A DNA stretch of 64,000 nt from Spirochaetia bacterium (GTDB lineage: Bacteria; Spirochaetota; Spirochaetia; UBA9216): positions 992,001-1,056,000 of the forward strand of contig OY776510.1 of NCBI GenBank assembly GCA_963675665.1. The letters are read 5' to 3'. The notes beneath the pieces were generated by a model. The model saw only the letters and a list, made by a program, of their open reading frames with translations. It did not search any database and was not told the DNA's origin. Within the stretch, counting starts at the first letter, position 1. The number at the start of each line of letters is the position of its first letter. The position numbers and the translations under genes were made by a program. Below are positions 49,975 through 64,000 of the stretch, one piece after another.

Positions 49975-51498
49975 ATGAAGGATTTTAAAGCATTAGGATT
50001 GCAGAAAAGATTTGACGGTGTTGTAGCACTTAAAACAGTAGATGTCGAATTTGAGGGCCCGAAGATTTGCGGACTGGTAGGTGCAAACGGTTCAGGCAAA
50101 ACAACATTCGCACGATTATGCTGCGGTTTTTATCATGCCGATTGCGGAGAAATATTTGTTAATGGAGAAAGGGTAGATATTAAAAAACCTGAAGATGCTC
50201 TCCGTTACAGAATTGTTTTGGCGCATCAGAATTTAAGTTTAATACCTGATCTTTCAGTTTGGGAAAATATTAAATTAGGCAGAGAAGCAAGAAAAGGTTT
50301 CTGGCTGGATGATAAATTCGATAAGGAGCATGCAAAAGAGATCCTTAATGAATTAGCGCCCGGTGAAATTGCCATAGAGATGAAAATCAGAGATTTGATC
50401 CCTGCTCATAAACAAATCGTTGAAATAGCAAAGGCGCTATCTCAGGATCCTGAGCTTTTGATTCTGGATGAACCGACAGCGGCGCTTGAGATCACACATG
50501 TTAAATTATTATTTAGAAAAATAAAAAAGCTTAAAGAAAATGATACATCAGTGATATTTGTATCCCATAGATTATGGGAAATCACAGAGATTTGTGATGT
50601 TGTATTTGCGTTCAGAAACGGAGAATATGTCGGGTCCCTTGATTTTGCAAAACAGCCCCGTGATGAGGAACTTATAATCCCTTTTGTAACCGGTCAGAAT
50701 GTTAAATATGAAAAGAAGACCAGAAAAAATGATTATTTGAATGAAGGGCCTGATGGTAGAGACTATTTAATACTGGAAAATGTGAATTACGGAAACAAGG
50801 TAAAGAACATCTCCCTGTCTGTGAAGAAAGGCGAGATTATAGGTATCGGAGGATTAAGCGGGCAGGGGCAGGAAGAATTGATAATGTTGCTTGCGGGCGC
50901 TTTAAAGAATACCGGGGGTCTGATAAAAATGGGTGGTGAAGTCCTGAAAATGAATCATCCGGTACATGCTGTAAAGAGAGGAATTTTCCTGGTTCCCGGA
51001 GATAGAAATGTGGATGGTTTATTTAATTCGCATGATGTCTTTACTAACGGGATATTTCCAAGATTTTCATTGAACAAAGAAAAGTTTCTTTTAAATTTCA
51101 GAAAATTATACGACATCATAAATGAAATTATTATTAAAGTAGAATTAAAACCGCAAAACAGTAAAAATGTTGTGAAAAAGCTCAGCGGTGGAAATCAGCA
51201 AAAAATAGTATTCGGCAGATGGCTGCAATTTAAACCGGCAGTGCTGCTTTTAAACGATCCTGCAAAAGGAATAGATATTCAGGCAAAAGATTCGCTTTAT
51301 ACATTGGCAAGAGGTTTGTCGAATGATGGTACTATTGTCGTATTATATTCCAGCAGTAATGAAGAATTAATTGAAAATTGCGATCGCGTGTTTGTTATGT
51401 TTGAAGGGGAGATCGTAGACGAATTTGAAAATCAGAATCTGTCAGATGATAATTTAATAAAATCCTCTTTACGTGTTAAGGGAGATATGAATGAATAA
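49975..51498 (+). CDS. Sugar ABC transporter ATPase
   Basis: GANGSGKTT, LDEPT, LSGGNQQK, NDPAKGID. Confidence 0.93.
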   Translation: MKDFKALGLQKRFDGVVALKTVDVEFEGPKICGLVGANGSGKTTFARLCCGFYHADCGEIFVNGERVDIKKPEDALRYRIVLAHQNLSLIPDLSVWENIKLGREARKGFWLDDKFDKEHAKEILNELAPGEIAIEMKIRDLIPAHKQIVEIAKALSQDPELLILDEPTAALEITHVKLLFRKIKKLKENDTSVIFVSHRLWEITEICDVVFAFRNGEYVGSLDFAKQPRDEELIIPFVTGQNVKYEKKTRKNDYLNEGPDGRDYLILENVNYGNKVKNISLSVKKGEIIGIGGLSGQGQEELIMLLAGALKNTGGLIKMGGEVLKMNHPVHAVKRGIFLVPGDRNVDGLFNSHDVFTNGIFPRFSLNKEKFLLNFRKLYDIINEIIIKVELKPQNSKNVVKKLSGGNQQKIVFGRWLQFKPAVLLLNDPAKGIDIQAKDSLYTLARGLSNDGTIVVLYSSSNEELIENCDRVFVMFEGEIVDEFENQNLSDDNLIKSSLRVKGDMNE

Positions 51499-52477
51499 AA
51501 TAAAAAGAATATCGGCTGATTTGATCAGGCGGCCGTCATTTACCAGTTTCCTCATATTAGTAGTTTTAGTTATTGTAAATGCGATAATTCAGCCCAACTT
51601 TTTTTCGTATCGATCATTAAAATCAAATTTCATGAGCTACACTCCGCTAATATTTGCGGCGGTAGCACAGGGAATGATAATACTCTCCGGTTCCATAGAT
51701 CTGTCGCTTGGAAGTACCATAGCATTGCTCAATTGTCTGACGGCTTCAATGCTGTCCGATTCAAATGTATTCAAGGTAATGATGTTTGGTCTTTTTATAA
51801 CACTTGTCGTCAGCGGTGTTATTAATGGATTATTAATCGGTAAATTAAATCTGTCTCCGTTGATTACTACATTTGCAACCTCGGCAATATATTTAGGAAT
51901 TGCGATGATTATCCTGCCTAAAGCAGGCGGGTATGTCCCGAGGTTTTTATATAATTATTATAAGGGCAGTTTTCTGGGAATTATACCTAATGCCTTTCTA
52001 TTGTTGATTTTAGGTTTGGCTTTATGGTTAATATTCAGCAGAACTTCCGCATATAGATATATCTATGCTGTAGGCAGCAATGAAGACGGCGCTTTTGCCT
52101 CCGGAATTTCAATTTTAAAAACCCGCCTTTTTGCACATCTTTTTTCCGGGTTTTTTATTTTTCTTGCGGGAGTATGTGTTATTATGTTTACTTCAACCGG
52201 AGACTATCGAACGGGAAGCAGCTATACAATGAATTCAATTGCCGCTGTTGTTATCGGAGGAATCTCTCTTTCCGGAGGAAAAGGTTCGATGGCAGGCGCC
52301 GTATGGGGCGCTTTGATATTAGGAGTCCTGAATAATATAATATTCTATTCACATGCCTCTTCATATTTCCAGGTGTTGGCAAAGGGTCTGATTATTGTTG
52401 CTGCATTATGTATCGGAATTATTCCGGCGCTGATTAATAATTCAAGAATGAAAAAAATCGGGGGAAATCTTAAATGA
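51491..52477 (+). CDS. Sugar ABC transporter permease
   Basis: GSIDLSLG, AAVVIGGISLSGG. Confidence 0.92.
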   Translation: MNKIKRISADLIRRPSFTSFLILVVLVIVNAIIQPNFFSYRSLKSNFMSYTPLIFAAVAQGMIILSGSIDLSLGSTIALLNCLTASMLSDSNVFKVMMFGLFITLVVSGVINGLLIGKLNLSPLITTFATSAIYLGIAMIILPKAGGYVPRFLYNYYKGSFLGIIPNAFLLLILGLALWLIFSRTSAYRYIYAVGSNEDGAFASGISILKTRLFAHLFSGFFIFLAGVCVIMFTSTGDYRTGSSYTMNSIAAVVIGGISLSGGKGSMAGAVWGALILGVLNNIIFYSHASSYFQVLAKGLIIVAALCIGIIPALINNSRMKKIGGNLK

Positions 52478-53490
52478 GTGAAATGGCATGTTCGGATAAA
52501 AATGACAGAGGTTCATCAGGAATTTTATTGCGAATAATCAATAACAGGGTTCTTTTTGCATTTATTTTGGTACTGTTTCTTTTTATATTCGGTGAGATAA
52601 TAGTTCCCGGATTTATCAAGTTTAACCATATTATGTCAGTGCTGCAGGCTTCATTCTTTCTGGGAATTATAAGTCTTGGTCAGACAATTGTTGTGATTTC
52701 AGGTGATGATGGTGTAGATCTTTCTGTAGGGGCTGTTTTAACCCTGGGCGTAGTAATTGGAGCTGCAGTTATTAATGGCGATAATGGGCGCGTACTGTAT
52801 GCAATACTTGCTGCTGTCAGTGCAGGTTTTATTGTCGGAATGGTTAACGGTATAGGAGTCTCGATATTGAAAATTTCTCCGTTGATAATGACTATGTCCT
52901 GGGGAATAGTCATTGAAGGAGGGATATTGTTTGCGATAAAAGGACATATGTATGGAACCGGGTCATCTTTCCTGGACATGATTGGAAACGGACATTTTAC
53001 AATTCCTGCATCCTCCGGAGGAAGTTTTACAATTCCATATGTCCTGTTTATTTGGGTTGTTTTAATTTTATTAGCAGTTTTTATTCTGAAAAGAACACGA
53101 GTGGGTTTTATCCTGTATGCTATTGGAGAAAACGATAATGCAGCACGTTTGCAGGGGATAAGAACCGGACTTGTCCGTATTCTGGTATATGGCATTAGCG
53201 GCTTACTGTCATGCCTGACCGGCATACTCCTTTTAGGCTATGTAGGAAGTGCGCATTTGAATTTAGGTAATCGATATATTCTTCCTTCTATTGTTGCAGT
53301 TGTTATTGGGGGTACGAATTTCGGCGGCGGCGCAGGCAGTTATATTGGAACGGTCGGCGGCGCAATATTCTTAACAACATTACAGAGTATATTGGTAACT
53401 CAGGAGATGTCTGAAGGCAGTAAACAGGTAGTTACCGGTTTAGTATTGTTGCTTTTATTAATTTTGTATAACAGAAAAAAGCAAAGATAA
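52474..53490 (+). CDS. Sugar ABC transporter permease
   Basis: GVDLSVG, GENDNAARLQG, AVVIGGT. Confidence 0.92.
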   Translation: MSEMACSDKNDRGSSGILLRIINNRVLFAFILVLFLFIFGEIIVPGFIKFNHIMSVLQASFFLGIISLGQTIVVISGDDGVDLSVGAVLTLGVVIGAAVINGDNGRVLYAILAAVSAGFIVGMVNGIGVSILKISPLIMTMSWGIVIEGGILFAIKGHMYGTGSSFLDMIGNGHFTIPASSGGSFTIPYVLFIWVVLILLAVFILKRTRVGFILYAIGENDNAARLQGIRTGLVRILVYGISGLLSCLTGILLLGYVGSAHLNLGNRYILPSIVAVVIGGTNFGGGAGSYIGTVGGAIFLTTLQSILVTQEMSEGSKQVVTGLVLLLLLILYNRKKQR

Positions 53491-53514
53491 ATATTCATAC
53501 ATAAGGAGATTATA

Positions 53515-54771
53515 ATGGAAGCGGATGTTAAGGAATTATACGATAATAGATTAAAAAGGGTAAAAGATGCTATAGCACTGAAAGAGCCGGATCAGATACC
53601 TATTGTCAGTCCTGTTCAGAAATTTGTTTACGATCATGCCGGAATCACTATGCGTGAGGCTATGTATGAATATGATAAAACCAAATTTGCATGTAAGAAA
53701 TTTGCAGAAGAATTCACGCCTGATATGGATTTTGGGCCCTGGTTTGCACTGCCCGGAAAGGTTTTGGATATTACCAAATTAAACTGGCTTCGCTGGCCGG
53801 GCGGCGGACTGGAAGATGACAATAATATGTATCAATTTATTGAAGATGAATATATGAAAGAAGATGAATACGATGAATTCAATTTTGATATGACTCATTT
53901 TCTTTTAACAAAATGGCTGCCCCGCTCGGTTGGAAATGCAGAAGGATTAAAAAACTTCCCGGTAATAAGAAACGCCATGTGGTTCGGGTGGTTTCCGGCT
54001 TGTCTGCCGTTTGCTTCAGATGAGCTGATCAAGGCTTTTGATACACTGAAAAGAGCAGGCGAAGAATTAGGTAATTATTATAGTTTCGTAGGGCAATACT
54101 TTGACGAAGTAAAGAGTGAATTCGGAATGCCCGCTGCTGCAGGATCCTTTGCCTGGGCGCCCTTTGATTTAATTGGAGATACTCTTCGCGGAACCGAAGG
54201 CGTTCTGATGGATATGTATGATCGACCTGAAAAACTCGAAGAAGCAATAGACAGAATGGTGCCGATCGGTATTGATATGGGTGTTCAGGGATTAAAAAAC
54301 AATCAGAACCCATTCTGCTGGATCTGGCTTCATAAAGGAATGGATTCGTTCATGTCTGATGAATATTTCTCCAGGTTCTACTGGAAAAGCTTCCTCAAGA
54401 TGATAGAGGGAATGGTTGAAGAAGGAGTAATTCCGATGATTTACGGAGAGGGTTCCTTAAATTCCAGACTTAAATATTTTGCCGAATTGCCTAAAGGCAA
54501 GTGTATGCTCCATCTTGAAAATGCCGAAATTGAGGAAATGCGAACCGCCAAAGAAACTCTTAAAGATGTAGTATGTCTTTCTGGAAATGTTCCGAATATT
54601 TTATTCTCGCACGGTTCTGTTGATGAAATAAAAGACTATACAAAAAAACTGATAGATATTTGCGGTAAAGACGGAGGATATATAATGGATACCTCTGCGT
54701 TATTGGATGAGGCAAAGCCCGAGAATGTCAGAGCCTGGTTCGACACGACCCGTGAATACGGCCGTTATTAA
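53515..54771 (+). CDS. Uroporphyrinogen decarboxylase superfamily protein (MtaA/CmuA-like)
   Basis: RVKDAIALKEPDQIP, APFD...LRG, DMYDRPE, SGNVP, GGYI, AKPENV. Confidence 0.85.
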   Translation: MEADVKELYDNRLKRVKDAIALKEPDQIPIVSPVQKFVYDHAGITMREAMYEYDKTKFACKKFAEEFTPDMDFGPWFALPGKVLDITKLNWLRWPGGGLEDDNNMYQFIEDEYMKEDEYDEFNFDMTHFLLTKWLPRSVGNAEGLKNFPVIRNAMWFGWFPACLPFASDELIKAFDTLKRAGEELGNYYSFVGQYFDEVKSEFGMPAAAGSFAWAPFDLIGDTLRGTEGVLMDMYDRPEKLEEAIDRMVPIGIDMGVQGLKNNQNPFCWIWLHKGMDSFMSDEYFSRFYWKSFLKMIEGMVEEGVIPMIYGEGSLNSRLKYFAELPKGKCMLHLENAEIEEMRTAKETLKDVVCLSGNVPNILFSHGSVDEIKDYTKKLIDICGKDGGYIMDTSALLDEAKPENVRAWFDTTREYGRY

Positions 54772-55519: not shown

Positions 55520-56641
55520 GTGAAATATCTAATCACAGTCATCTTCCTGCTGTTGCTTGTTGCATATTCGCTGTCCGGAGAACCCCTTACAACCGGGGTG
55601 GTCGAATTTGAAGAAAAAAATGATATCGGGCTGGATAATGCCGGGATAATTATTCCCGAAGTTCTTGTTTCACACTTGAAAAATATCGGCAAATATAAAT
55701 TTACGGAACGTATACTGTTAAAAAAGGTGCTCGAAGAACAGGCCCTGCAGATGAGCGGAATAATTGATGAAGATACAGCGGGAGAAGTGGGAAAACTTTT
55801 CGGTCTTGAGGCGGTAATCACCGGTTCGGCAATGAAGATCGGCGATGAAATCACAATCAGCGGAAGGGTCATAAAAACCGAGACTGCGGAGATTATAGCA
55901 TCCGGAACGATAGAATTCACGGAAATCGACAGGCTGAAAGAAAACCTGGAAAAACTGGCTTATCTTCTGTCGGGTTATTCGGAAGACGATTATCAGAATA
56001 TAAAGGTTTCCTATGAAATCTCCAAGAACAACTACGGTTTAAGGCTCGGTTCGGGATATGCCCGGAATTCAAACGATAACGGGTTTTCGGGCCTGCTTAT
56101 AGGCCTGTTCTACCAGGGAGAGAAAATCAGCGCAGAGTTTAACGGTATTCCTCCTGTTCTTGCCAATGTCGCCCTGATAAACCCAGCGGTCAGTTATTTT
56201 CCGTTTACCCATGTCGGATTCGGAGCAAGCTTCATCTTCTGCAGCGATGAACTGAGCAAGGCTGATAAAAATGTAACAGGCGAGGACCATTGGCACGGGG
56301 AATACATGTCGGTTCTTCTTGGAATTAATCTGAGAGCTTCCGAAGCACTAAGGGGTTCCGTATACATGGGGCCGACAATTGACACGGCCATAATGTATCA
56401 GGATGAACAGAATGAAGAGAGGCATTATTCCGGCGGATTTCAGTTCGGGTTTCCTCCTCCGGCAATAACCGTTGAAGCTGAATACTGGTTTCCCAATAAT
56501 ATGTCCTTACGGTTTTTGTTTATAATGGACGGCGGCGACGGCGTATTTGAAGGTGCGGAGACTGATACCGATGGCATGAGCACAATGTTTATAACTCTGT
56601 CGTTGGGATATAAATTTTCAATAAAATCCAGTGATAAATAG
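55520..56641 (+). CDS. Exported CsgG/HfaB-like domain protein with beta-rich C-terminus
   Basis: ERILLKKVLEEQALQMSG...VGKLFG...ITGS motif; signal peptide; LGYKF near the end. Confidence 0.75.
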   Translation: MKYLITVIFLLLLVAYSLSGEPLTTGVVEFEEKNDIGLDNAGIIIPEVLVSHLKNIGKYKFTERILLKKVLEEQALQMSGIIDEDTAGEVGKLFGLEAVITGSAMKIGDEITISGRVIKTETAEIIASGTIEFTEIDRLKENLEKLAYLLSGYSEDDYQNIKVSYEISKNNYGLRLGSGYARNSNDNGFSGLLIGLFYQGEKISAEFNGIPPVLANVALINPAVSYFPFTHVGFGASFIFCSDELSKADKNVTGEDHWHGEYMSVLLGINLRASEALRGSVYMGPTIDTAIMYQDEQNEERHYSGGFQFGFPPPAITVEAEYWFPNNMSLRFLFIMDGGDGVFEGAETDTDGMSTMFITLSLGYKFSIKSSDK

Positions 56642-56693
56642 AGAAAACATCTGTTTGTCCGGGGTTAAAGCCCTTTAACCGTTTGGTAGATTT

Positions 56694-58517
56694 TTATTTC
56701 AAATTAAATCTAATCGTAAAAATGCAACCGCTTGGTTTTTTGTTTGAATAGTTTATTGTTCCGTTATATTTATTAATAATGTTGTAGACTACCGACAACC
56801 CCAGTCCCATATTGTTGCCGGTGTTTTCCTTTGTTGAAAAGAATGGAGAAAACACCTTCTCTATGTATTTTTTATTTATTCCCGGACCATTGTCGCTTAC
56901 TTTAATTTCTACCTCTCTGGAATTTTCTTTAACATCAAGAGAAGTGACAATTTCAATTTCTCCGCCGTCGTTCATTGCTTCAAAACTGTTTCGGATCAGG
57001 TTTAAAAGAATTTGCTTGAATTCAATCGGGTTTATTATAAGCCAGATATCTTCGCGTGATTTGGTAAAATATATTTTTATGTTCTGGTATTGGGCGTTGA
57101 AATTCAAAAGGTTAATTGTTTCCTGCACCAATGAGTTAATTTCAACCTTATCGGTCCAGTCTACAGGTTTGTTTGCGAAGGTCATCAGGTTGCTGGTAAT
57201 ATGGGCGATTGTATTTATTTCGCTGCACAAATTATCTACAGTTTCTTTAAGTGCTGTGTCATCTAATTTCAGGTTAAGGTATTCCAGGTAATTATAAACT
57301 GCAGTCAAAGGATTATTTATCTCATGAGCAACTCCGGCGGCAAGCAGTCCGGTAGACGCAAGCCGTTCCGACAAAATAACCTTTTCACGAAGTTCTTCTC
57401 TTTGGGTTATATCTTCAAGAATTATAATTGAACCGATAAGAAATGAACCGTCATATATCGGATGTGTTTTTATATTTACTCTAAGCTTATCTGATTTTGT
57501 CGTAAAGTTTAAATTAAAATAATTTTTTTCATTTGATTTTAATAAACCGTCTTTTATTAAAGTAAAGATGTCAGGATTTTCTTCAAATAAGTATTCAATA
57601 TTCTTTCCGAGAAATTTATCTGTTTTTGAAAAAAAGCTTTTTGCCTGGTGATTGATTAGTTTTATATTGTTATGACGATCAAGCGCCAGCAGTATAACCG
57701 GAAGTTTCTCCAGAATGGCTTTGTTGTATTTTAACAGTTGATAAAATTCTTCTTTTTCGGAATCAATCATGTCTTCCGACATTATCTGCGTATAAGCCAG
57801 TTTTATCAGGTTGATTTTGTCAATATTTTTTACTCTGTCGGTAATAATTAGCTCGCCGTTTCTTATTATAGTAACCTTGTCGGCGAATTCATAAATGTCG
57901 TCTATACGATGCGTAACATAAAGAATGGTTGTGCCTTCTTCTCTCAATTTTTTGAGAATGTTGATTATTTTTGTAAAATTTATCTGCGACAGTTTCTGAA
58001 GGGCTTCATCAAGAATAAGCAAAGAAGGTTGAGTATAGATATGCTTAATTATTTCAATCAGAATCCTGTCTGAAAGTTTAAGGTTTCGTATTTTAATATT
58101 AGGATCAATATTGAAACCGTACTGTTGTATTATTTTTCTTGCGTTCTCTGTAATTTTTGTTTTATTTTTTCTGAAATATCCGGTCTTGTTTTTTATATGG
58201 GAAAACAAATTGTCCGCAACTGAAAAATTATCAAGCATAGGAAATTGTTGAGTTATAATTTCTACTCCATTATCCATTGCGGTTTCGCGGCTGAAAAAGG
58301 AATGTCTCTTACCGTTGAAAATTATATCTCCGTTTATCGGTTTTTCTATTCCGCTGATGATATTGCATAAAGATGTTTTGCCTGCTCCGTGTTCGCCGAC
58401 TATTGCAATTATTTCTGATTTATTAACCGAATAGTTGATATTTTTCAGTACCTTAAAACCGTTATATGAAAGCTCTATGTTCTGTAATTCAAGCAGCTTA
58501 ATTTGTTCTGATTTCAT
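56694..58517 (-). CDS. ABC-ATPase-PAS-histidine kinase fusion protein
   Basis: N-terminal GEHGAGKT, LLILDE, YVTHR; PAS region ending EDIT; AGVAHEINNPL, NLIRNS, DNGPGI, PFFSTK, GLGL. Confidence 0.9.
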   Translation of the reverse strand: MKSEQIKLLELQNIELSYNGFKVLKNINYSVNKSEIIAIVGEHGAGKTSLCNIISGIEKPINGDIIFNGKRHSFFSRETAMDNGVEIITQQFPMLDNFSVADNLFSHIKNKTGYFRKNKTKITENARKIIQQYGFNIDPNIKIRNLKLSDRILIEIIKHIYTQPSLLILDEALQKLSQINFTKIINILKKLREEGTTILYVTHRIDDIYEFADKVTIIRNGELIITDRVKNIDKINLIKLAYTQIMSEDMIDSEKEEFYQLLKYNKAILEKLPVILLALDRHNNIKLINHQAKSFFSKTDKFLGKNIEYLFEENPDIFTLIKDGLLKSNEKNYFNLNFTTKSDKLRVNIKTHPIYDGSFLIGSIIILEDITQREELREKVILSERLASTGLLAAGVAHEINNPLTAVYNYLEYLNLKLDDTALKETVDNLCSEINTIAHITSNLMTFANKPVDWTDKVEINSLVQETINLLNFNAQYQNIKIYFTKSREDIWLIINPIEFKQILLNLIRNSFEAMNDGGEIEIVTSLDVKENSREVEIKVSDNGPGINKKYIEKVFSPFFSTKENTGNNMGLGLSVVYNIINKYNGTINYSNKKPSGCIFTIRFNLK

Positions 58518-59802
58518 AATGTTTCATCTTGTTATATAGAGTCTTTCTGCTTATACCGAGTAATTGCGCCGCCGCCGATTTATGATTATTTGTTGTTTTC
58601 AGCGCCTTGAGAATCAATTCTTCTTCATTATTTTTTTTTATGCTTAATGAATAAGGCGTTTCTTTAGTATTAAGATACGGCGGCAGATCGTTAATCCGGA
58701 TCTCGTCATTCCTGGCTAAAACCAGCGCATAATTAATAACATTCTCAAGCTCACGTATATTTCCGGGCCAGGAAAATGTTTTAAAAAGGAGAGTTGTTTC
58801 TTTGCTGAGGTGTTTATTGCTTCCTTTCTTTTTGATGAAAATTGCCGACAGGTGTTCAATATCTTCAATTCTGTCTCTGAGCGGCGGCAGTATTACTGTA
58901 GCCGTGTTCAGCCTGTAGTACAGATCCTTGCGAAAGGTTTTTTCCTTAATCATCTCGGGTAAGTCTTTATTTGTTGCTGCAATAAATCGTACATCAATAT
59001 TCAGATCTTCTTTTCCGCCGAGGCGGCGTATCTCCTTGTTCTGAATGGCTCTTAAAATTTTTGCCTGGAGCGACAGCGGCATGTCGCCAATCTCATCCAG
59101 AAAAAGGGTGGATTTATCTGCACGTTCAAAAACTCCTTTAAATAAATCTCCTGCGCCTGTGTAAGCGCCTTTTTCATGGCCGAACAGTTCATTTTCCAGA
59201 AGAGATTCGTTAAAAGACGAGCAGTTGATTTTAACAGCTTTTTTTCCCCTGTGCTGTGAGTTTTTATGAATGAAATCGGCAAGGACCTCTTTCCCGGTAC
59301 CGCTTTCGCCCTGTATCAGGATTGGAATGTCTGATGTTGCAAGGACTTTTACTTTCTCGATTATTTCCTGCATTTCCGAATTCAGAGAAAAGACGGAATC
59401 GTTGACATTCAGGACATTGCTGTTTTCTTCAGCTGTTTGAAGATGCTTCTCAATTATTGTGAAGAGCTTTTTAAAATTAATAGGTTTCTGTATATAGTTT
59501 TTTGCGCCGAACTGAATTGCCTGTACTGCAGTCTCGATTGTTCCGAAAGCGGTTATCATTATTATGGGAATATCCGTATTATATGAAAGCAGTTTTTTCA
59601 GTATAGACATGCCGTCTTCATCACCAAGCCTGATGTCCAGCAGGGTTAAATCCACCGATGAAGATGAATAATGCCTTGCCGCCTCTTCAAAATTTCCTGC
59701 ATAGAGACAATAAAAACCCTTTTCAAGCAGAAGTGGTGATAAACTTTTATAGATGCTGATATTGTCGTCAACCAGTAAAATTGTTTTTTCAAATGTCACC
59801 AT
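58498..59802 (-). CDS. NtrC-family sigma54 response regulator (REC-AAA+-Fis HTH)
   Basis: [43 protein letters not shown]; start 59802 preferred over 59856. Confidence 0.93.
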   Translation of the reverse strand: MVTFEKTILLVDDNISIYKSLSPLLLEKGFYCLYAGNFEEAARHYSSSSVDLTLLDIRLGDEDGMSILKKLLSYNTDIPIIMITAFGTIETAVQAIQFGAKNYIQKPINFKKLFTIIEKHLQTAEENSNVLNVNDSVFSLNSEMQEIIEKVKVLATSDIPILIQGESGTGKEVLADFIHKNSQHRGKKAVKINCSSFNESLLENELFGHEKGAYTGAGDLFKGVFERADKSTLFLDEIGDMPLSLQAKILRAIQNKEIRRLGGKEDLNIDVRFIAATNKDLPEMIKEKTFRKDLYYRLNTATVILPPLRDRIEDIEHLSAIFIKKKGSNKHLSKETTLLFKTFSWPGNIRELENVINYALVLARNDEIRINDLPPYLNTKETPYSLSIKKNNEEELILKALKTTNNHKSAAAQLLGISRKTLYNKMKHYEIRTN

Positions 59803-59846
59803 ATTACCCAAAATATACAAACATGGGTATACATTACCCATGTTTG
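59794..59846. promoter_or_regulatory. Putative enhancer sites for the NtrC-type regulator
   Basis: Perfect palindrome CAAACATGGGTA-TACAT-TACCCATGTTTG 59818-59846; half-degenerate copy TGTCACCATATTACCCA 59794-59810. Confidence 0.7.
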
Positions 59847-59957
59847 ATTTAATCAAATAAGGAATTGTAAAAGCAAAATTTGTATTTGTCCAGAAAATAA
59901 TGTTTCAGAGGTTATTTCCTGATTCATTTTATCGATTTAAACGCTATTTCGTGTTGT

Positions 59958-59973
59958 TGGCATGGATGATGCT
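59958..59973 (+). promoter_or_regulatory. sigma54 (-24/-12) promoter of the ABC operon
   Basis: TGGCATGGATGATGCT = GG-N10-GC, 30 nt upstream of ATG 60004. Confidence 0.82.
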
Positions 59974-60003
59974 TTATATAAGCAAATCTACAGGAGGTTT
60001 TTT

Positions 60004-60948
60004 ATGAAACTGTTAAAAACTTTACTAATTGTAATGGCCGTCGTTTTGATTGCAGCAGGCTCTTTGTCTGCAGCAGGTCAGCAGGAATCCGACGGAAAGC
60101 TGAAGATCGTGCTTGTTCCCAAATCGGTAGGACATCCGTTCTGGGCTGATCTGGAGAAGGGTATGGAAGATAAAGCGGAAGAAATGGGAGTAACAGCTTT
60201 TTTTCACGGCCCCCAGAGTGCAACCGCAAGCGGCCAGATATCAATAATTGAAGATTATCTTGCAATGGGAGTTGACGGAATTGCTATAGCGGCTAACGAC
60301 CCTGATGCAATCAAGAAGTATGTTGAAATGGGTCTTGAGCAGGGTGTCCAGATGGTTACGTTCGACACTGATGCTCCCGACAGCGGACGTCTTTTTTATG
60401 TCGGAACTGATAATGTAGCCGCAGGCAACCAGGGTGCGGAAGCACTGATAAAGATGATGAACGGAAAAGGCAAGGTTGCAATACTTACTGGCGGACTGAC
60501 AGCGCTTAATCTCAATCAGAGAATTGAAGGTTTCGAGAAAGCTGTTGCTGCGTATCCTGATATAGAAATTGTTGCCAAGGAATCTCATGGTGATTCTCTG
60601 GAACAGGGGATTCCTCTGATGGAAAACCTTTTAACTGAATATCCGGATATCGATGCGTTTTATTGTGTAAGCGGTCCCAATGTAGCAGCGGAAGGGTTGA
60701 AGTCTGCAGGATATGCACCCGGAGAAAAAATTGTCTTCGGCTTCGACATTTTCGATCCTGTTCCTGCTCTTATCAGAGAGGGGTATATACAGGGAACTGT
60801 TGCTCAGCTTCCGTATAAAGAAGGCCAGATAGTTGTAGAAAAACTTGTTGCCAAGATAAACGGTGAAAGTGTAGATGAAATCGTCGGCACAGGCACAAAT
60901 GTAGTTACATCAGAGAATATTGACGCATATCTCTCAGAGGTTCATTAA
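60004..60948 (+). CDS. Sugar ABC transporter substrate-binding protein
   Basis: AGGAGG RBS; leader ending SAAGQQE; HPFW, FDTDAPDS, YVGTDN. Confidence 0.93.
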   Translation: MKLLKTLLIVMAVVLIAAGSLSAAGQQESDGKLKIVLVPKSVGHPFWADLEKGMEDKAEEMGVTAFFHGPQSATASGQISIIEDYLAMGVDGIAIAANDPDAIKKYVEMGLEQGVQMVTFDTDAPDSGRLFYVGTDNVAAGNQGAEALIKMMNGKGKVAILTGGLTALNLNQRIEGFEKAVAAYPDIEIVAKESHGDSLEQGIPLMENLLTEYPDIDAFYCVSGPNVAAEGLKSAGYAPGEKIVFGFDIFDPVPALIREGYIQGTVAQLPYKEGQIVVEKLVAKINGESVDEIVGTGTNVVTSENIDAYLSEVH

Positions 60949-61006: not shown

Positions 61007-62521
61007 ATGACTGATGTACTGCTTGATTTAAGATCTATTTCAAAAAAATTCCCCGGGGTTAAAGCTCTGGATAATGTTAATATTCAAATTAAAAAAGGTG
61101 AGGTTCATTCGATTCTGGGAGAAAACGGTGCAGGGAAATCTACACTGATGAAAATAATCAGCGGTGCGTTGAATAAAGATGAAGGTGAGATGATTTTTGA
61201 AGGCCGGACCGTCAGTTTCTCGAATACAATGGACTCTCAAAAAGCCGGAATAGCGATGATATATCAGGAGTTTAATCTTGCGCCGCATTTGACGGTTGAA
61301 GACAATGTCTTTATTGCAAACGAACCCTGTTCAAGGTTAAATATTGTTGATAGAAAAACTGTTCGCAAAAGAACATTCGAGCTGCTGGACAGTATAGACT
61401 TCAAACTGGATCCTTCAAAAAAAATAAAGAACCTGAATGTCTGTGAACAGCAGATTACGGAAATAATCAAAGCGCTTCGAAATGAATCAAAGCTAATCAT
61501 TATGGACGAGCCGACGTCTGCGTTAACCGAGAACGAAATCAGAAAATTCTTTAAATGTATTGATAAAATGAGAAGCGAAGGTCTCAGTATCTTATTCATA
61601 TCACATAACCTTGAAGAGGTTTTTGAGATCTCTGATACGATTACTGTTATGCGTGACGGAAAATCGGTCGGAACCTACCCGATTGATGAAATCACACCGA
61701 ATGATGCAGTCAGGCTGATGGTCGGAAGAGAAGTTGAAAATATCTACGACAGGAAGACTGTAGAAATTGGCGAAGAAGTTCTGAGAGTAAAGAATTTATC
61801 CAGTCCCGGCAAAATACACGATGTTTCGTTTACTCTCAGAGAAGGTGAGGTTCTCGGTATCTGCGGTCTGCTCGGCGCCGGGAAGACTGAAATTGTCCGC
61901 GGCATTTTCGGTGCGGATACGAAAGCGACGGGAGAAGTATTCATAAAGGGCAGAAAATTAAAAGTAGGCAATATTAATGATGTTATAGATGCGGGTATCG
62001 GATTAATACCTGAGGACAGAAAAAACCAGGGATTATTTCTGGACAAAAACATAAAAGAAAACCTGAGTGCAGCAAGTATTGAAGAGCTTTCAAAATGTAA
62101 GTTCCTTTCAAAAATGCGGGAGCAGGATCTTGCTTCTCAATATGTGGAGATTCTGCGCATAAAGACCTCCGGTTTGAAGCAGATTGTCAATAATTTGAGT
62201 GGCGGGAACCAGCAGAAAGTTGTAATCGGCAAATGGCTTGCTCTTTCTCCGAAAGTGCTGCTTATGGATGATCCGACAAGGGGTGTTGATATCGGCGCGA
62301 AACAGGCTATCTATAAACTTATCGGAGAGCTTGTGTCCTCCGGTGTCGGGGTGATTTTTATTTCTTCCGAGCTGCCGGAGGTTATAGGGATTTCGGATCG
62401 TCTGCTGGTGATTGCGGATGGAGAATTAAAAGCGGAATTTAGAAGTGATGATGCAACCCAGGAAAAAATCCTGACAGCGGCAACATTAAAAACAAAACTA
62501 AATTCAGAAAAGGCGGTATGA
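61007..62521 (+). CDS. Sugar ABC transporter ATPase (RbsA-like)
   Basis: GENGAGKST, MDEPT, LSGGNQQK, DDPTRGVDIGAK. Confidence 0.95.
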   Translation: MTDVLLDLRSISKKFPGVKALDNVNIQIKKGEVHSILGENGAGKSTLMKIISGALNKDEGEMIFEGRTVSFSNTMDSQKAGIAMIYQEFNLAPHLTVEDNVFIANEPCSRLNIVDRKTVRKRTFELLDSIDFKLDPSKKIKNLNVCEQQITEIIKALRNESKLIIMDEPTSALTENEIRKFFKCIDKMRSEGLSILFISHNLEEVFEISDTITVMRDGKSVGTYPIDEITPNDAVRLMVGREVENIYDRKTVEIGEEVLRVKNLSSPGKIHDVSFTLREGEVLGICGLLGAGKTEIVRGIFGADTKATGEVFIKGRKLKVGNINDVIDAGIGLIPEDRKNQGLFLDKNIKENLSAASIEELSKCKFLSKMREQDLASQYVEILRIKTSGLKQIVNNLSGGNQQKVVIGKWLALSPKVLLMDDPTRGVDIGAKQAIYKLIGELVSSGVGVIFISSELPEVIGISDRLLVIADGELKAEFRSDDATQEKILTAATLKTKLNSEKAV

Positions 62522-63537
62522 ATATTATGAAATACACTGACACTGTAAACAAGGAAAAGGATGACATCGAAGAAAAACAGATTAATAAGTGTACGAATAT
62601 TCTGAAAAAAATATTTAACTTTCAGGAATCGGCGATTTTATTTGTATTTATTATTTTCTGTATTCTGCTGTCTATCGTTGCTCCGAGGTTTTTGCTTCCG
62701 CAAAACATATCAAATGTAATCAGACAGTTTTCAATGGTTGCTATAGTAGCAGTCGGAATGAGCTTTGTTATAATTTCCGGAGGAATTGATCTTTCAGTCG
62801 GCGGTATCGTCGCCTTTGTCGGCGTTTCAGTTGCCTGGATGATAGTAAATATGGGGATGCCTATCTGGCTGGCCATATTCATCGGCCTGATTCTCGGATC
62901 ATTTCTTGGTCTTCTTAATGCAATACTGATTGTTCGGGTCGGACTGCCTCCGTTCATTGCGACCCTTGGAACAATGCAGATTTCCAGAGGGCTGGTTCTG
63001 GCTTTAACCAGGGGGTACCCCATCAGACCGTTTCCCGAAGTCTTTCTGGCAATAGGTCACGGCAAAATAGGCGTTATCCCGGTTCCTATTGTAATCATGA
63101 TCATCGTAATTATTGTTGCTCATATATTTCTGAGTAAAACAACAACCGGCAGGTATATCTACTATACGGGCAGCAACCTTGATGCCGCGGTTCTGTCCGG
63201 AATAAAAACCAAACGGATTTTGTCGTCGGTCTATATAATTACAGGGTTTCTTTGCGCAGTAGCGGCGGTTTTGTTGACAGCCAGGCTGTCTTCGGCCCAG
63301 AGCAATATGGCTGAAGGCTGGGAGCTTGATGCTATTGCCGCTGTCGTAATAGGCGGGGCAAGCCTGTCGGGCGGTGAAGGATCAATTATCGGCACTCTCA
63401 TAGGTGCGGCAATTATGGGAGTCATCAGAAACGCTCTGGTACTTCTTCACGTTTCGGTTTACTGGCAGACCGTTGTTATCGGCTGTGTAATTATTGCGGC
63501 GGTTACCATAGATAAAGTCAGGCATAAGGATAATTAA
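62518..63537 (+). CDS. Sugar ABC transporter permease (RbsC-like)
   Basis: GGIDLSVG, PPFIATLG, ELDAIAAVVIGGASLSGG. Confidence 0.95.
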   Translation: MNIMKYTDTVNKEKDDIEEKQINKCTNILKKIFNFQESAILFVFIIFCILLSIVAPRFLLPQNISNVIRQFSMVAIVAVGMSFVIISGGIDLSVGGIVAFVGVSVAWMIVNMGMPIWLAIFIGLILGSFLGLLNAILIVRVGLPPFIATLGTMQISRGLVLALTRGYPIRPFPEVFLAIGHGKIGVIPVPIVIMIIVIIVAHIFLSKTTTGRYIYYTGSNLDAAVLSGIKTKRILSSVYIITGFLCAVAAVLLTARLSSAQSNMAEGWELDAIAAVVIGGASLSGGEGSIIGTLIGAAIMGVIRNALVLLHVSVYWQTVVIGCVIIAAVTIDKVRHKDN

Positions 63538-63552
63538 AAGAAGGGGAATGAT

Positions 63553-64000
63553 ATGAGATTTAAATCACAGGCAGCATTACTTACAGGTGCAGCGAGAGGA
63601 ATAGGAAAGGCAGTGGCAAAGAAGCTGGCCTCGGAAGGTTGTTATGTTGAAATTACCGATATAGACGAAAATGCAATAGATGAAGCTGTCAGGGAAATAA
63701 ATAAAGAATTCCCGGGACTGGCGGGCGGATCAATTATGGATGTAACTGATAGTTCATCGATAAACCGGGTTGTAAAAAAACTGTTAAATGAAAAAAGCAG
63801 GATTGATATCCTCGTTAATAATGCGGGAGCAAACGGAAAGGGCTGGGTTGTGGATTTTGAGGAGAAATTATGGCAGACGATTATTCAAACTAATCTTACG
63901 GGGACATTTCTCTGTTCAAAAGCGGTTTTGCCGGGAATGATAAAAAAAGGAAAAGGCAGGATTATTAATATTGCTTCAATTGCCGGAAAACAGGGCGAAT
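63553..64000 (+). CDS. SDR oxidoreductase (polyol/sugar dehydrogenase-like), partial
   Basis: Hand translation MRFKSQAALLTGAARGIG...DILVNNAG...TNLTG...IINIASIAGKQGE; runs off the window edge. Confidence 0.88.
   Translation, partial: MRFKSQAALLTGAARGIGKAVAKKLASEGCYVEITDIDENAIDEAVREINKEFPGLAGGSIMDVTDSSSINRVVKKLLNEKSRIDILVNNAGANGKGWVVDFEEKLWQTIIQTNLTGTFLCSKAVLPGMIKKGKGRIINIASIAGKQGE

Follow-up and report, generated by a model that had tools for sequence, protein, structure and literature searches.

How the presence of a sugar in the periplasm is reported to the cytoplasm is known for few systems, especially where uptake runs mostly through binding-protein-dependent ATP-binding cassette (ABC) importers. 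The histidine kinases AtoS and ZraS reside in the membrane and have a periplasmic or transmembrane (TM) input, CbrB, the partner of the kinase CbrA, is an activator of the NtrC family, and in MalK-MalT the state of the nucleotide-binding domain (NBD) of an ABC importer is relayed to transcription. A relay of NBD state to transcription is also ascribed to the importer PstSCAB with PhoU and PhoR (PMC9239213). According to three reports, the kinase of the BceRS-BceAB modules of Firmicutes obtains its signal by way of an ABC transporter that is a protein distinct from it; the kinase is of the intramembrane-sensing type with two TM helices, and the transporter is a peptide-resistance pump with a large extracellular domain (PMC4513084, PMC10314905, PMC9169098). 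The SLC5/STAC kinases CbrA and CrbS, called 'transceptors', are described as combining a transporter part and a histidine kinase in one polypeptide (PMC7096432, PMC13022988, PMC9100948). Here we describe a gene at positions 56694-58517, on the minus strand, of a 64,000-nucleotide stretch of a Spirochaetia bacterium genome (contig OY776510.1, positions 992,001 to 1,056,000; hereafter the window), which encodes a histidine kinase of 607 amino acids (aa), P0001, whose N-terminal input domain is an ABC NBD of the CUT2 sugar importer type.

The protein belongs to a large and widespread kinase family for which we found no description in print. Our literature searches, with subscription journals and supplements outside their reach, found no account of a histidine kinase fused to an ABC NBD, just as an earlier reading of the window, made from the sequence only, had known of no characterised example. 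Taken as a whole, the best explanation seems to us a soluble kinase with a captured first NBD (NBD1) of a CUT2 ATPase as input and a sigma-54-dependent output, which reads the adjacent sugar permease; we would give it an even chance of being right. New here are the family-wide decay of catalytic as opposed to binding residues, the degeneracy of the motifs acting in trans when set against the first and second NBDs of the importers, a set of eight paralogues with sigma-54 promoters, and the negative outcome of co-diversification tests.

The gene is one uninterrupted open reading frame (ORF), as the sequence-only reading had reported, with the correction that it lies on the minus strand; the plus-strand reading of the same interval is full of stops. 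From its N-terminus the protein consists of the NBD (aa 7-243, nucleotides 57789-58499), delimited by Pfam, NCBIfam, a tree, an AlphaFold2 model and motif comparison; a variable linker (aa 244-256, 57750-57788) that leads from the C-terminal helix of the NBD to the N-cap helix of a PAS domain and forms the fusion junction; the PAS domain with this conserved N-cap helix (aa 257-370, 57408-57749); and a kinase core (56700-57407) composed of the HisKA dimerisation and histidine phosphotransfer (DHp) domain (aa 371-448, with H398) and HATPase_c (aa 456-606). In Pfam, ABC_tran matched aa 24-173 with 77.4 bits (cut-off 25), and both HisKA (aa 391-448, 39.7 bits) and HATPase_c (aa 497-606, 79.9 bits) exceeded their cut-offs. 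PAS_9 and PAS, at aa 266-372, reached 22.8 and 21.2 bits, slightly below theirs; a PAS fold is present at about aa 257-369 in the AlphaFold2 model, and homologues have PF08448, PF00989 or PF13426. The model, computed from 74 homologues with a mean predicted local distance difference test score (pLDDT) of 78.8, shows the NBD fold with high confidence (aa 7-242), the PAS domain together with its N-cap helix (aa 254-369), a two-helix DHp (aa 371-448) and a catalytic domain (aa 456-605). The pLDDT falls below 50 in the linker (aa 244-255), and it is within this low-confidence segment that the fusion point first placed near 57780 is found.

Structure and sequence comparisons divide the protein at the same place. 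Foldseek matched its N-terminal third to ABC NBDs (LptB, TM-score 0.87-0.88, normalised to target length) and its C-terminal two thirds to the PAS/LOV kinases 4gcz and 3a0r, and among its matches there was no solved chain spanning both the NBD and the kinase parts; solved sequence relatives are ThkA (3a0r) and ZraS (9jfj). In NCBIfam, aa 5-256 aligned to the first half of AraG, YtfR, MglA, XylG and RbsA, which we take to be CUT2 (TC 3.A.1.2) sugar importer ATPases, with 168 bits for AraG over aa 5-239, and aa 260-606 aligned to AtoS with 249 bits. The likeness of the first 245 or so residues to the NBD1 of RbsA-type ATPases, initially judged by eye, is thereby borne out, with 29% identity over aa 8-259 to the NBD1 of the ATPase encoded at 61007. 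Scores against the CUT2 ATPase equivalogs were 139-168 bits, with only the first half aligned, against cut-offs of 689-828, and the protein stays far below every NCBIfam equivalog cut-off, that of AtoS included. A PAS domain and an NtrB-class kinase do stand in place of the second NBD (NBD2), as the sequence-only reading had it: Pfam, the model and the AtoS alignment agree, and H398, N506/N510, D542/G544, F556/F559 and G571/G573 (H, N, G1, F and G2 boxes) are invariant in a 74-sequence alignment. The highest 19-residue Kyte-Doolittle mean is only 1.15, so that no TM helix is predicted and the protein would be soluble, in line with the first reading. By sequence it counts among both the HisKA kinases and the ABC NBD superfamily, although it is without the ABC signature and does not qualify as an equivalog of the CUT2 ATPases.

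The fusion is real and conserved, and is not an artefact of assembly. A word-indexed protein search returned 1344 proteins at E <= 0.001 among 7999 candidates, and ABC_tran, HisKA and HATPase_c occur together in 120 of 120 homologues among the matches listed (562-634 aa); an architecture scan combined with a homologue search, as first suggested, thus found the ABC_tran/HisKA/HATPase_c fusion common to all of these. From an exhaustive search over 1.84 billion cluster representatives we took the best 150 matches, clusters at 50% identity, which include 126 full-length representatives (560-670 aa, P0001 among them) with this same architecture, so that the family comprises at least 126 such clusters. 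Strongly conserved columns extend across all domains in the 74-sequence alignment. With aa 150-300 as query, we found no other output domain joined to this NBD: 115 of the 120 listed matches were full ABC_tran, HisKA and HATPase_c proteins, and the other five were pieces of 363-459 aa. One longer variant, P0220 (851 aa), has an N-terminal ABC_tran, two HisKA stretches and HATPase_c at aa 742-850.

Sequencing contigs agree with the protein searches. A 26,592 bp contig from run X1, possibly the source of the window DNA, matched 56600-60100 without difference. A 626 bp contig from run X4, which belongs to another study, spans 57340-57965 with 32 differences, an interval that includes the NBD/PAS junction (57750-57788); no indel was reported for any of the four sequencing runs. 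Mapping across the junction, named at the outset as a check, accordingly speaks for the fusion. A look for RNA data sets among the listed runs found none. Separately, summed contig depth at 59057-59290 reached 425-976 in run X1 and about 100-300 in the other runs, where loose ends were numerous. Part of the sigma-54 AAA+ domain of the neighbouring regulator is encoded here, and the excess probably stems from conserved activator genes of other organisms.

The phylogenetic position of the NBD points to its source. Our tree contained the 70 NBD1 and 70 NBD2 sequences of the CUT2 ATPases of the source genome, its eight kinase NBDs and 36 kinase NBDs from elsewhere, the last being every second row of the homologue alignment. 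All 44 kinase NBDs formed one clade (support 0.59) nested among the NBD1s, and the 70 NBD2s formed a separate clade (70/70, support 1.0). Since the single kinase clade lies on the NBD1 side, the kinase NBD was captured once, from a CUT2 NBD1. The sugar-ABC ATPase origin at first assumed for the sensor is thus upheld by the tree and by the first-half alignment in NCBIfam, which both place it in CUT2 NBD1.

When we compared the motifs of this NBD with those of the importers, we found that the cis nucleotide motifs are retained, while those acting in trans across an NBD dimer, the signature and the D-loop, are degenerate throughout the family on sequence comparison. The Walker A consensus is GEHGAGKS in the kinase NBDs, GENGAGKS in NBD1 and GxxGxGRT in NBD2; the Q-loop Gln and the H-loop His (THR in the kinase NBDs) are shared with NBD1 and lacking in NBD2; and Walker B, LLILDE in the kinase NBDs, is present in all three. 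The signature reads L[NK]LSDR in the kinases against LSvAxQ in NBD1 and LSGGNQ in NBD2, and the D-loop region reads DEALEKLS against DEPTsaLT in NBD1. In this protein all five cis residues are present (K47 in GEHGAGKT at aa 41-48, Q90, D170-E171 and H203), the signature position holds LKLSDR instead of LSGGQ, and the D-loop SALD is replaced by QKLS (EKLS in the family consensus). Among the 126 representatives, Gly is absent from the four commonest residues at both signature Gly positions. The sequence-only reading had listed Walker A, the Q-loop, Walker B and the H-switch correctly, and had overlooked the decay of signature and D-loop.

Conservation within the cis set is uneven. The Walker A Lys and the Walker B Asp are each found in 121 of the 126 representatives, the catalytic Glu in 109, the Q-loop Gln in 95 and the H-loop His in 85, and all five residues occur together in 67. 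Because the binding residues are nearly universal and the catalytic set is complete in just these 67, the conserved property would be ATP binding and not turnover. The eight paralogues of the source genome retain the Asp-Glu pair in 8/8, the Walker A Lys in 7/8, the Q-loop Gln in 5/8 and the aligned H-switch His in 3/8, one more having a His one residue on. The idea that ATP turnover might be converted into kinase activity is weakened accordingly, both by the degenerate trans motifs and by the loss of catalytic residues. The best-conserved features specific to the family lie in the C-terminal helix of the NBD (D233, L237, Y242) and in the PAS N-cap helix (Y264, N265, E266, A267, L269), on either side of a linker whose mean identity is 11% among the eight paralogues. 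In the orthologous subfamily, conservation of the Q-loop region equals that of the catalytic motifs. Among the paralogues, no part of the NBD varies more than the helical subdomain, and the same holds for true NBD1s.

The output side of the kinase is easier to read. Co-transcription of the kinase with an NtrC-type sigma-54 activator, whose phosphorylation would act on the divergent sigma-54 promoter of a sugar operon, is predicted from the gene arrangement and strongly supported. The activator (58498-59802, minus strand) is a response regulator with REC, sigma-54 AAA+ and HTH_8 domains in Pfam and AtoC/NtrC-like matches in NCBIfam (AtoC, 372 bits), and carries the GAYTGA loop in its AAA+ domain. 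Its start is probably the ATG at 59802, the ORF staying open to 59856, and its stop is overlapped by the kinase start over 20 nt. Upstream, at 59818-59846, lies a perfect 12-nt inverted repeat, CAAACATGGGTA-N5-TACCCATGTTTG, a candidate binding site for the activator; within the window the exact half-site occurs at these two arms alone. About 126 bp further on lies a sigma-54-type -24/-12 element, TGGCATGGATGATGCT (59958-59973, plus strand), 30 nt upstream of the start codon of a sugar-binding protein gene.

By itself the 8/11 match of this element is not above chance: the window holds 23 matches with at most two mismatches against 23.9 expected, and sites like 59958-59973 (8/11) number 1986 genome-wide. 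What supports the element is its placement, together with equivalent elements at six of the seven other paralogous loci, correctly oriented before the first target gene and matching 11, 10, 9, 9, 9 and 8 of 11 positions; sites with at least nine matches number 320 in 10.3 Mb. GG-N10-GC elements (8-11 of 11 positions) thus stand ahead of the first target-operon gene at seven of the eight paralogous loci, and rpoN is intact in the genome (462-aa ORF). The upstream repeats differ between these loci, as would be expected for paralogue-specific activators if, as we infer, they are the binding sites.

The predicted target operon, on the plus strand, starts with the gene for a sugar-binding protein (60004-60948; Peripla_BP_4 in Pfam, also matched in NCBIfam), probably at the ATG at 60004 that follows AGGAGG, its ORF being open from 59962. 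It continues with a CUT2 ATPase of 504 aa and two NBDs (61007-62521; Pfam, NCBIfam), a CUT2 permease of 339 aa (BPD_transp_2, 62518-63537; Pfam, NCBIfam), which is the proposed docking partner of the kinase, and a short-chain dehydrogenase (63553-64000, Pfam) that runs past the end of the window. The window also contains a second CUT2 operon (49975-54771), in which the gene for a two-NBD ATPase lies at 49975, those for two permeases lie at 51491 and 52474, and a URO-D-like gene follows at 53515; it has no NBD-kinase of its own. Directly downstream of the kinase gene, and convergent with it, a 373-aa ORF (55520-56641) has a weak CsgG match (34 bits, aa 47-103).

The same arrangement recurs in the source genome and beyond. 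On its single 5.15 Mb contig we counted 70 two-NBD CUT2 ATPases, 86 BPD_transp_2 permeases and eight full-length NBD-kinases, CUT2 importers being expanded in this genome. Eight of its 17 full-length NtrC-type regulators are paired with the NBD-kinases, the activator gene preceding the kinase in all eight cases. Seven of the eight paralogues adjoin a CUT2 operon (binding protein, ATPase and permease or permeases, as a rule with dehydrogenases or lactonases next in order), of which six are divergent and one lies on the same strand. Opposite the remaining paralogue, p3, are genes for two Zn-dehydrogenases and for a glycyl-radical enzyme with its activase, and no transporter; the glycyl-radical genes here fill the place of a transporter as the target operon of sigma-54. 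Enzymes of this type (PFL-like with Gly_radical), together with radical-SAM activases, are encoded next to paralogue p6 (L095, 1622-4975) as well as p3 (L092, 8261-13760).

In other genomes, a CUT2 ATPase and permease were adjacent at 19 of the 20 loci of a first set, with record names Spirochaetaceae, Thalassospirochaeta and KSB3, and at all five further loci from KSB3 and Moduliflexus genomes, L139 being the same place as L004 and not counted again. The total is 24 of 25 distinct loci elsewhere and 31 of 33 overall, so that the link to a sugar ABC transporter drawn from this window holds for most of the loci examined. At the exception outside the source genome, L122, a LacI-type regulator and arabinose-catabolism-like genes take the place of the transporter. 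The family is patchy, occurring in 14 of 401 sampled genomes of the phylum of the window, the source genome counted. None of 401 sampled genomes from the phylum of genome G401 matched at E <= 1e-60, which does not show absence there because three candidates were scored per genome, as in the first sample. A contig scan with the pattern AGVAHEIN returned mostly generic kinases, with full-length family members at 6 of 80 loci. Two regulator/NBD-kinase pairs stand back to back at L075 (2971-9806), each beside its own CUT2 ATPase. At L123 (4761-7653) and L129 (1583-7795), tblastn covers just the first-NBD part of the ATPase (query aa 5-239 or 5-226); these ATPases are possibly single-NBD proteins, with permease and binding-protein genes alongside, two such sets at L129.

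How could an NBD serve as the input of such a kinase? We propose that the two NBDs of the kinase dimer would rest on the coupling helices of a dimer of the cognate permease, taking the place of the two-NBD ATPase. A sugar-loaded binding protein docking on the periplasmic face would move the permease, and this movement would close or re-orient the ATP-bound kinase NBDs. The change would be relayed through the C-terminal helix of the NBD and the PAS N-cap helix to the DHp, switching autophosphorylation on, with nucleotide binding, and not hydrolysis, as the conserved requirement. The kinase would then phosphorylate the NtrC-type activator, which would open the divergent sigma-54 promoter of the genes for binding protein, ATPase, permease and dehydrogenase. 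In its fullest form, which we hold to be somewhat less likely than not, kinase dimers would replace the ATPase on a sub-population of permeases, so that binding protein, permease and NBD-kinase together would make a dedicated transmembrane sugar receptor. The ABC coupling would then work 'outside-in', with bound ATP serving only as a cofactor when the NBDs close; family members without the catalytic residues would be receptors of a pseudo-ATPase kind, and each of the eight paralogues would recognise its own permease among 86.

The step on which this proposal turns is the docking of the NBD on the cognate permease, for and against which the evidence, including a structural prediction, leaves us about evenly divided. 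In its favour are the CUT2 NBD1 origin, the retained fold and nucleotide-binding residues, the well-conserved Q-loop region of the orthologous subfamily, the NBD1-like variability of the helical subdomain, and the lack of a TM or periplasmic sensor in the kinase although the ligand is bound in the periplasm. We also predicted the complex of the kinase NBD (aa 1-250) with the permease at 62518-63537 in three runs with three controls. The scores were 0.44, 0.47 and 0.72 (median 0.47, best control 0.00), which amounts to weak support; at least 88% of the contacts are common to the runs and the partner pLDDT is at least 79. Of 157 solved complexes 116 attained this mark, against 2 of 215 mismatched pairs, but scores of 0.60 or below were those of 18 of the 157 solved complexes and of both passing mismatches. 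We found no solved structure matching the permease by sequence, and a close template for the prediction is therefore unlikely.

Several observations weigh against docking. In the band up to 0.60, where this score lies, wrong predictions outnumber right ones unless there was good prior reason for the guess, and the pairing of an NBD with a transmembrane domain is textbook geometry, which we counted against the proposal when weighing the complex score. The transporter already has a complete ATPase of its own. In the CUT2 trees of the genome, the ATPases (8 of 70) and permeases (10 of 86) that adjoin a kinase are dispersed, requiring 8 and 10 Fitch changes against shuffle means of 7.7 and 9.6, so that kinase and transporter did not diversify together. 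The Q-loop Gln is missing from 31 of the 126 representatives and from three of the eight paralogues, and conservation of the Q-loop region is 24% among the kinase paralogues against 48% among NBD1s. In this region and the helical region, the kinase NBD resembles its cognate NBD1 no more than it resembles the 69 others, the cognate ranking 22, 13, 39, 17, 53, 33, 2 and 32 of 70 (mean 26.4 against a null of 35.5, not significant). The variable, low-confidence linker argues against a rigid helical relay, and two of the 33 loci (p3 and L122) have no transporter within about 8-10 kb. A mirror-tree (Mantel) test over the seven kinase-transporter modules of the source genome gave no correlation between the kinase NBD and either the permease (r = 0.21, p = 0.27) or the ATPase NBD1 (r = -0.01), and is powerless at this divergence, as the true partners ATPase NBD1 and permease gave r = -0.26. 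The suggestion in the sequence-only reading that the NBD docks on a sugar permease thus gains something from the complex prediction and nothing from the co-evolution and mimicry tests. A clade of kinase-adjacent transporters, which we had considered, was rejected by the scatter in both trees.

Many of these observations are what one would expect if the NBD never contacted the transporter, and acted instead as a module for nucleotide-dependent dimerisation or for sensing the ATP/ADP energy state, with the imported sugar, or a catabolite, bound in the cytoplasm by PAS and the transporter being no more than the regulatory target. Synteny with a target operon is expected of any two-component system, and a kinase of this kind would sit as comfortably beside the catabolic genes at p3 and L122 as beside a transporter. 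It would conserve the nucleotide-binding residues (121 of 126 each) while the coupling and catalytic residues decayed, could tolerate a flexible linker, and would neither co-diversify with transporters nor mimic the cognate NBD1. Identity among the paralogues is 28% for the PAS domain and 30% for the NBD, so either domain could carry specificity. However, this leaves unexplained why the NBD should derive specifically from a CUT2 NBD1, and why 31 of 33 loci adjoin CUT2 and not other sugar systems. The dimerisation version is further burdened by the family-wide degeneracy of signature and D-loop, which makes a canonical ATP-sandwich homodimer unlikely, and a general energy sensor would not need eight paralogues. 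We regard an NBD without transporter contact, the chief alternative to docking, as unlikely, though by no means far-fetched.

The loss of a usable signature from an NBD that retains the NBD1 cis motifs could also mean that it pairs with the ATPase of the transporter or with another soluble NBD, so that an LSGGNQQ of the NBD2 type completes the ATP site and the kinase reads the ATPase cycle. The canonical signature of this genome is indeed found in NBD2, which itself has Arg for the Walker A Lys and lacks the Q-loop Gln and the H-loop His, and single-NBD ATPases such as those suspected at L123 and L129 could form mixed dimers. In the two-NBD ATPases, however, NBD1 and NBD2 are covalently joined and already paired, and the catalytic residues are gone in about half of the family, which makes such pairing improbable. 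That P0001 itself holds all five cis catalytic residues might suggest a bifunctional subunit which also energises transport, as an alternative ATPase for the permease; but a homodimer would have no canonical site, given the degenerate signature and D-loop, the neighbouring operon includes a gene for a complete ATPase, both here and at 31 of 33 loci, and half of the family lacks the full catalytic set, so that we give this very little credence. Nothing was found to suggest that the fusion arose in assembly or annotation, or that the gene is decaying, a possibility made negligible by the intact frame, the 120 listed homologues from many assemblies, the eight paralogues, the bridging contig from another study, the lack of indels in four runs and the conserved columns in all domains.

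If the proposal is correct, a kinase carrying a copied transporter motor would be a simple and direct solution to the reporting of periplasmic sugar, reading the conformation of the permease itself, and the family would show how an ABC NBD has in nature been turned from work to signalling, pseudo-ATPase forms included. It is also easily tested genetically, because of its fixed architecture and the clear output at a neighbouring sigma-54 promoter, and might be re-used as a sugar biosensor.

The nearest relatives of its two halves are familiar proteins. With the CUT2 ATPases RbsA, AraG, XylG, MglA and YtfR the kinase shares the first-NBD alignment, the place in the NBD1 clade and the Walker A, Q-loop, Walker B-Glu and H-loop motifs, but it has one NBD instead of two, fused to PAS and kinase domains. 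Compared with CUT2 NBD1, its signature and D-loop are further degenerate and the C-terminal helix motif MVGR has become AYTQ. With AtoS/AtoC, ZraS/ZraR and NtrB/NtrC it has in common the PAS-HisKA-HATPase core, a REC-AAA+-HTH_8 partner and a predicted -24/-12 target promoter; unlike AtoS and ZraS, it lacks TM segments and receives its input through an ABC NBD.

Among systems in which transport and signalling are joined, the Bce modules resemble the arrangement proposed here in that the kinase, itself lacking a ligand-binding sensor, depends for its input on an ABC transporter which its regulator induces. Features that define the Bce type are absent, as the kinase has no TM helix and the transporter is a binding-protein-dependent CUT2 importer and no BceAB-type pump. 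The present case differs too in that the transporter domain is fused into a soluble kinase, the importer is one for sugars and the regulator is sigma-54-dependent. Fusion of a transporter piece to a histidine kinase is shared with CbrA and CrbS. Theirs, however, is a complete membrane symporter that itself binds or transports the solute, whereas here it is the cytoplasmic ABC motor domain only, blind to the solute, which would need permease and binding protein if it senses through the transporter; in Pfam we found no SLC5 or STAC match in P0001, nor any TM helix in its hydropathy profile. In MalK-MalT and PstSCAB-PhoU-PhoR, separate proteins bind the NBD of the transporter, whereas here an extra copy of the NBD lies inside the kinase. 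Transporter-coupled sensing, as in Bce, Pst/PhoU, DctA/DcuS and CbrA, would thus be extended to a fused ABC domain.

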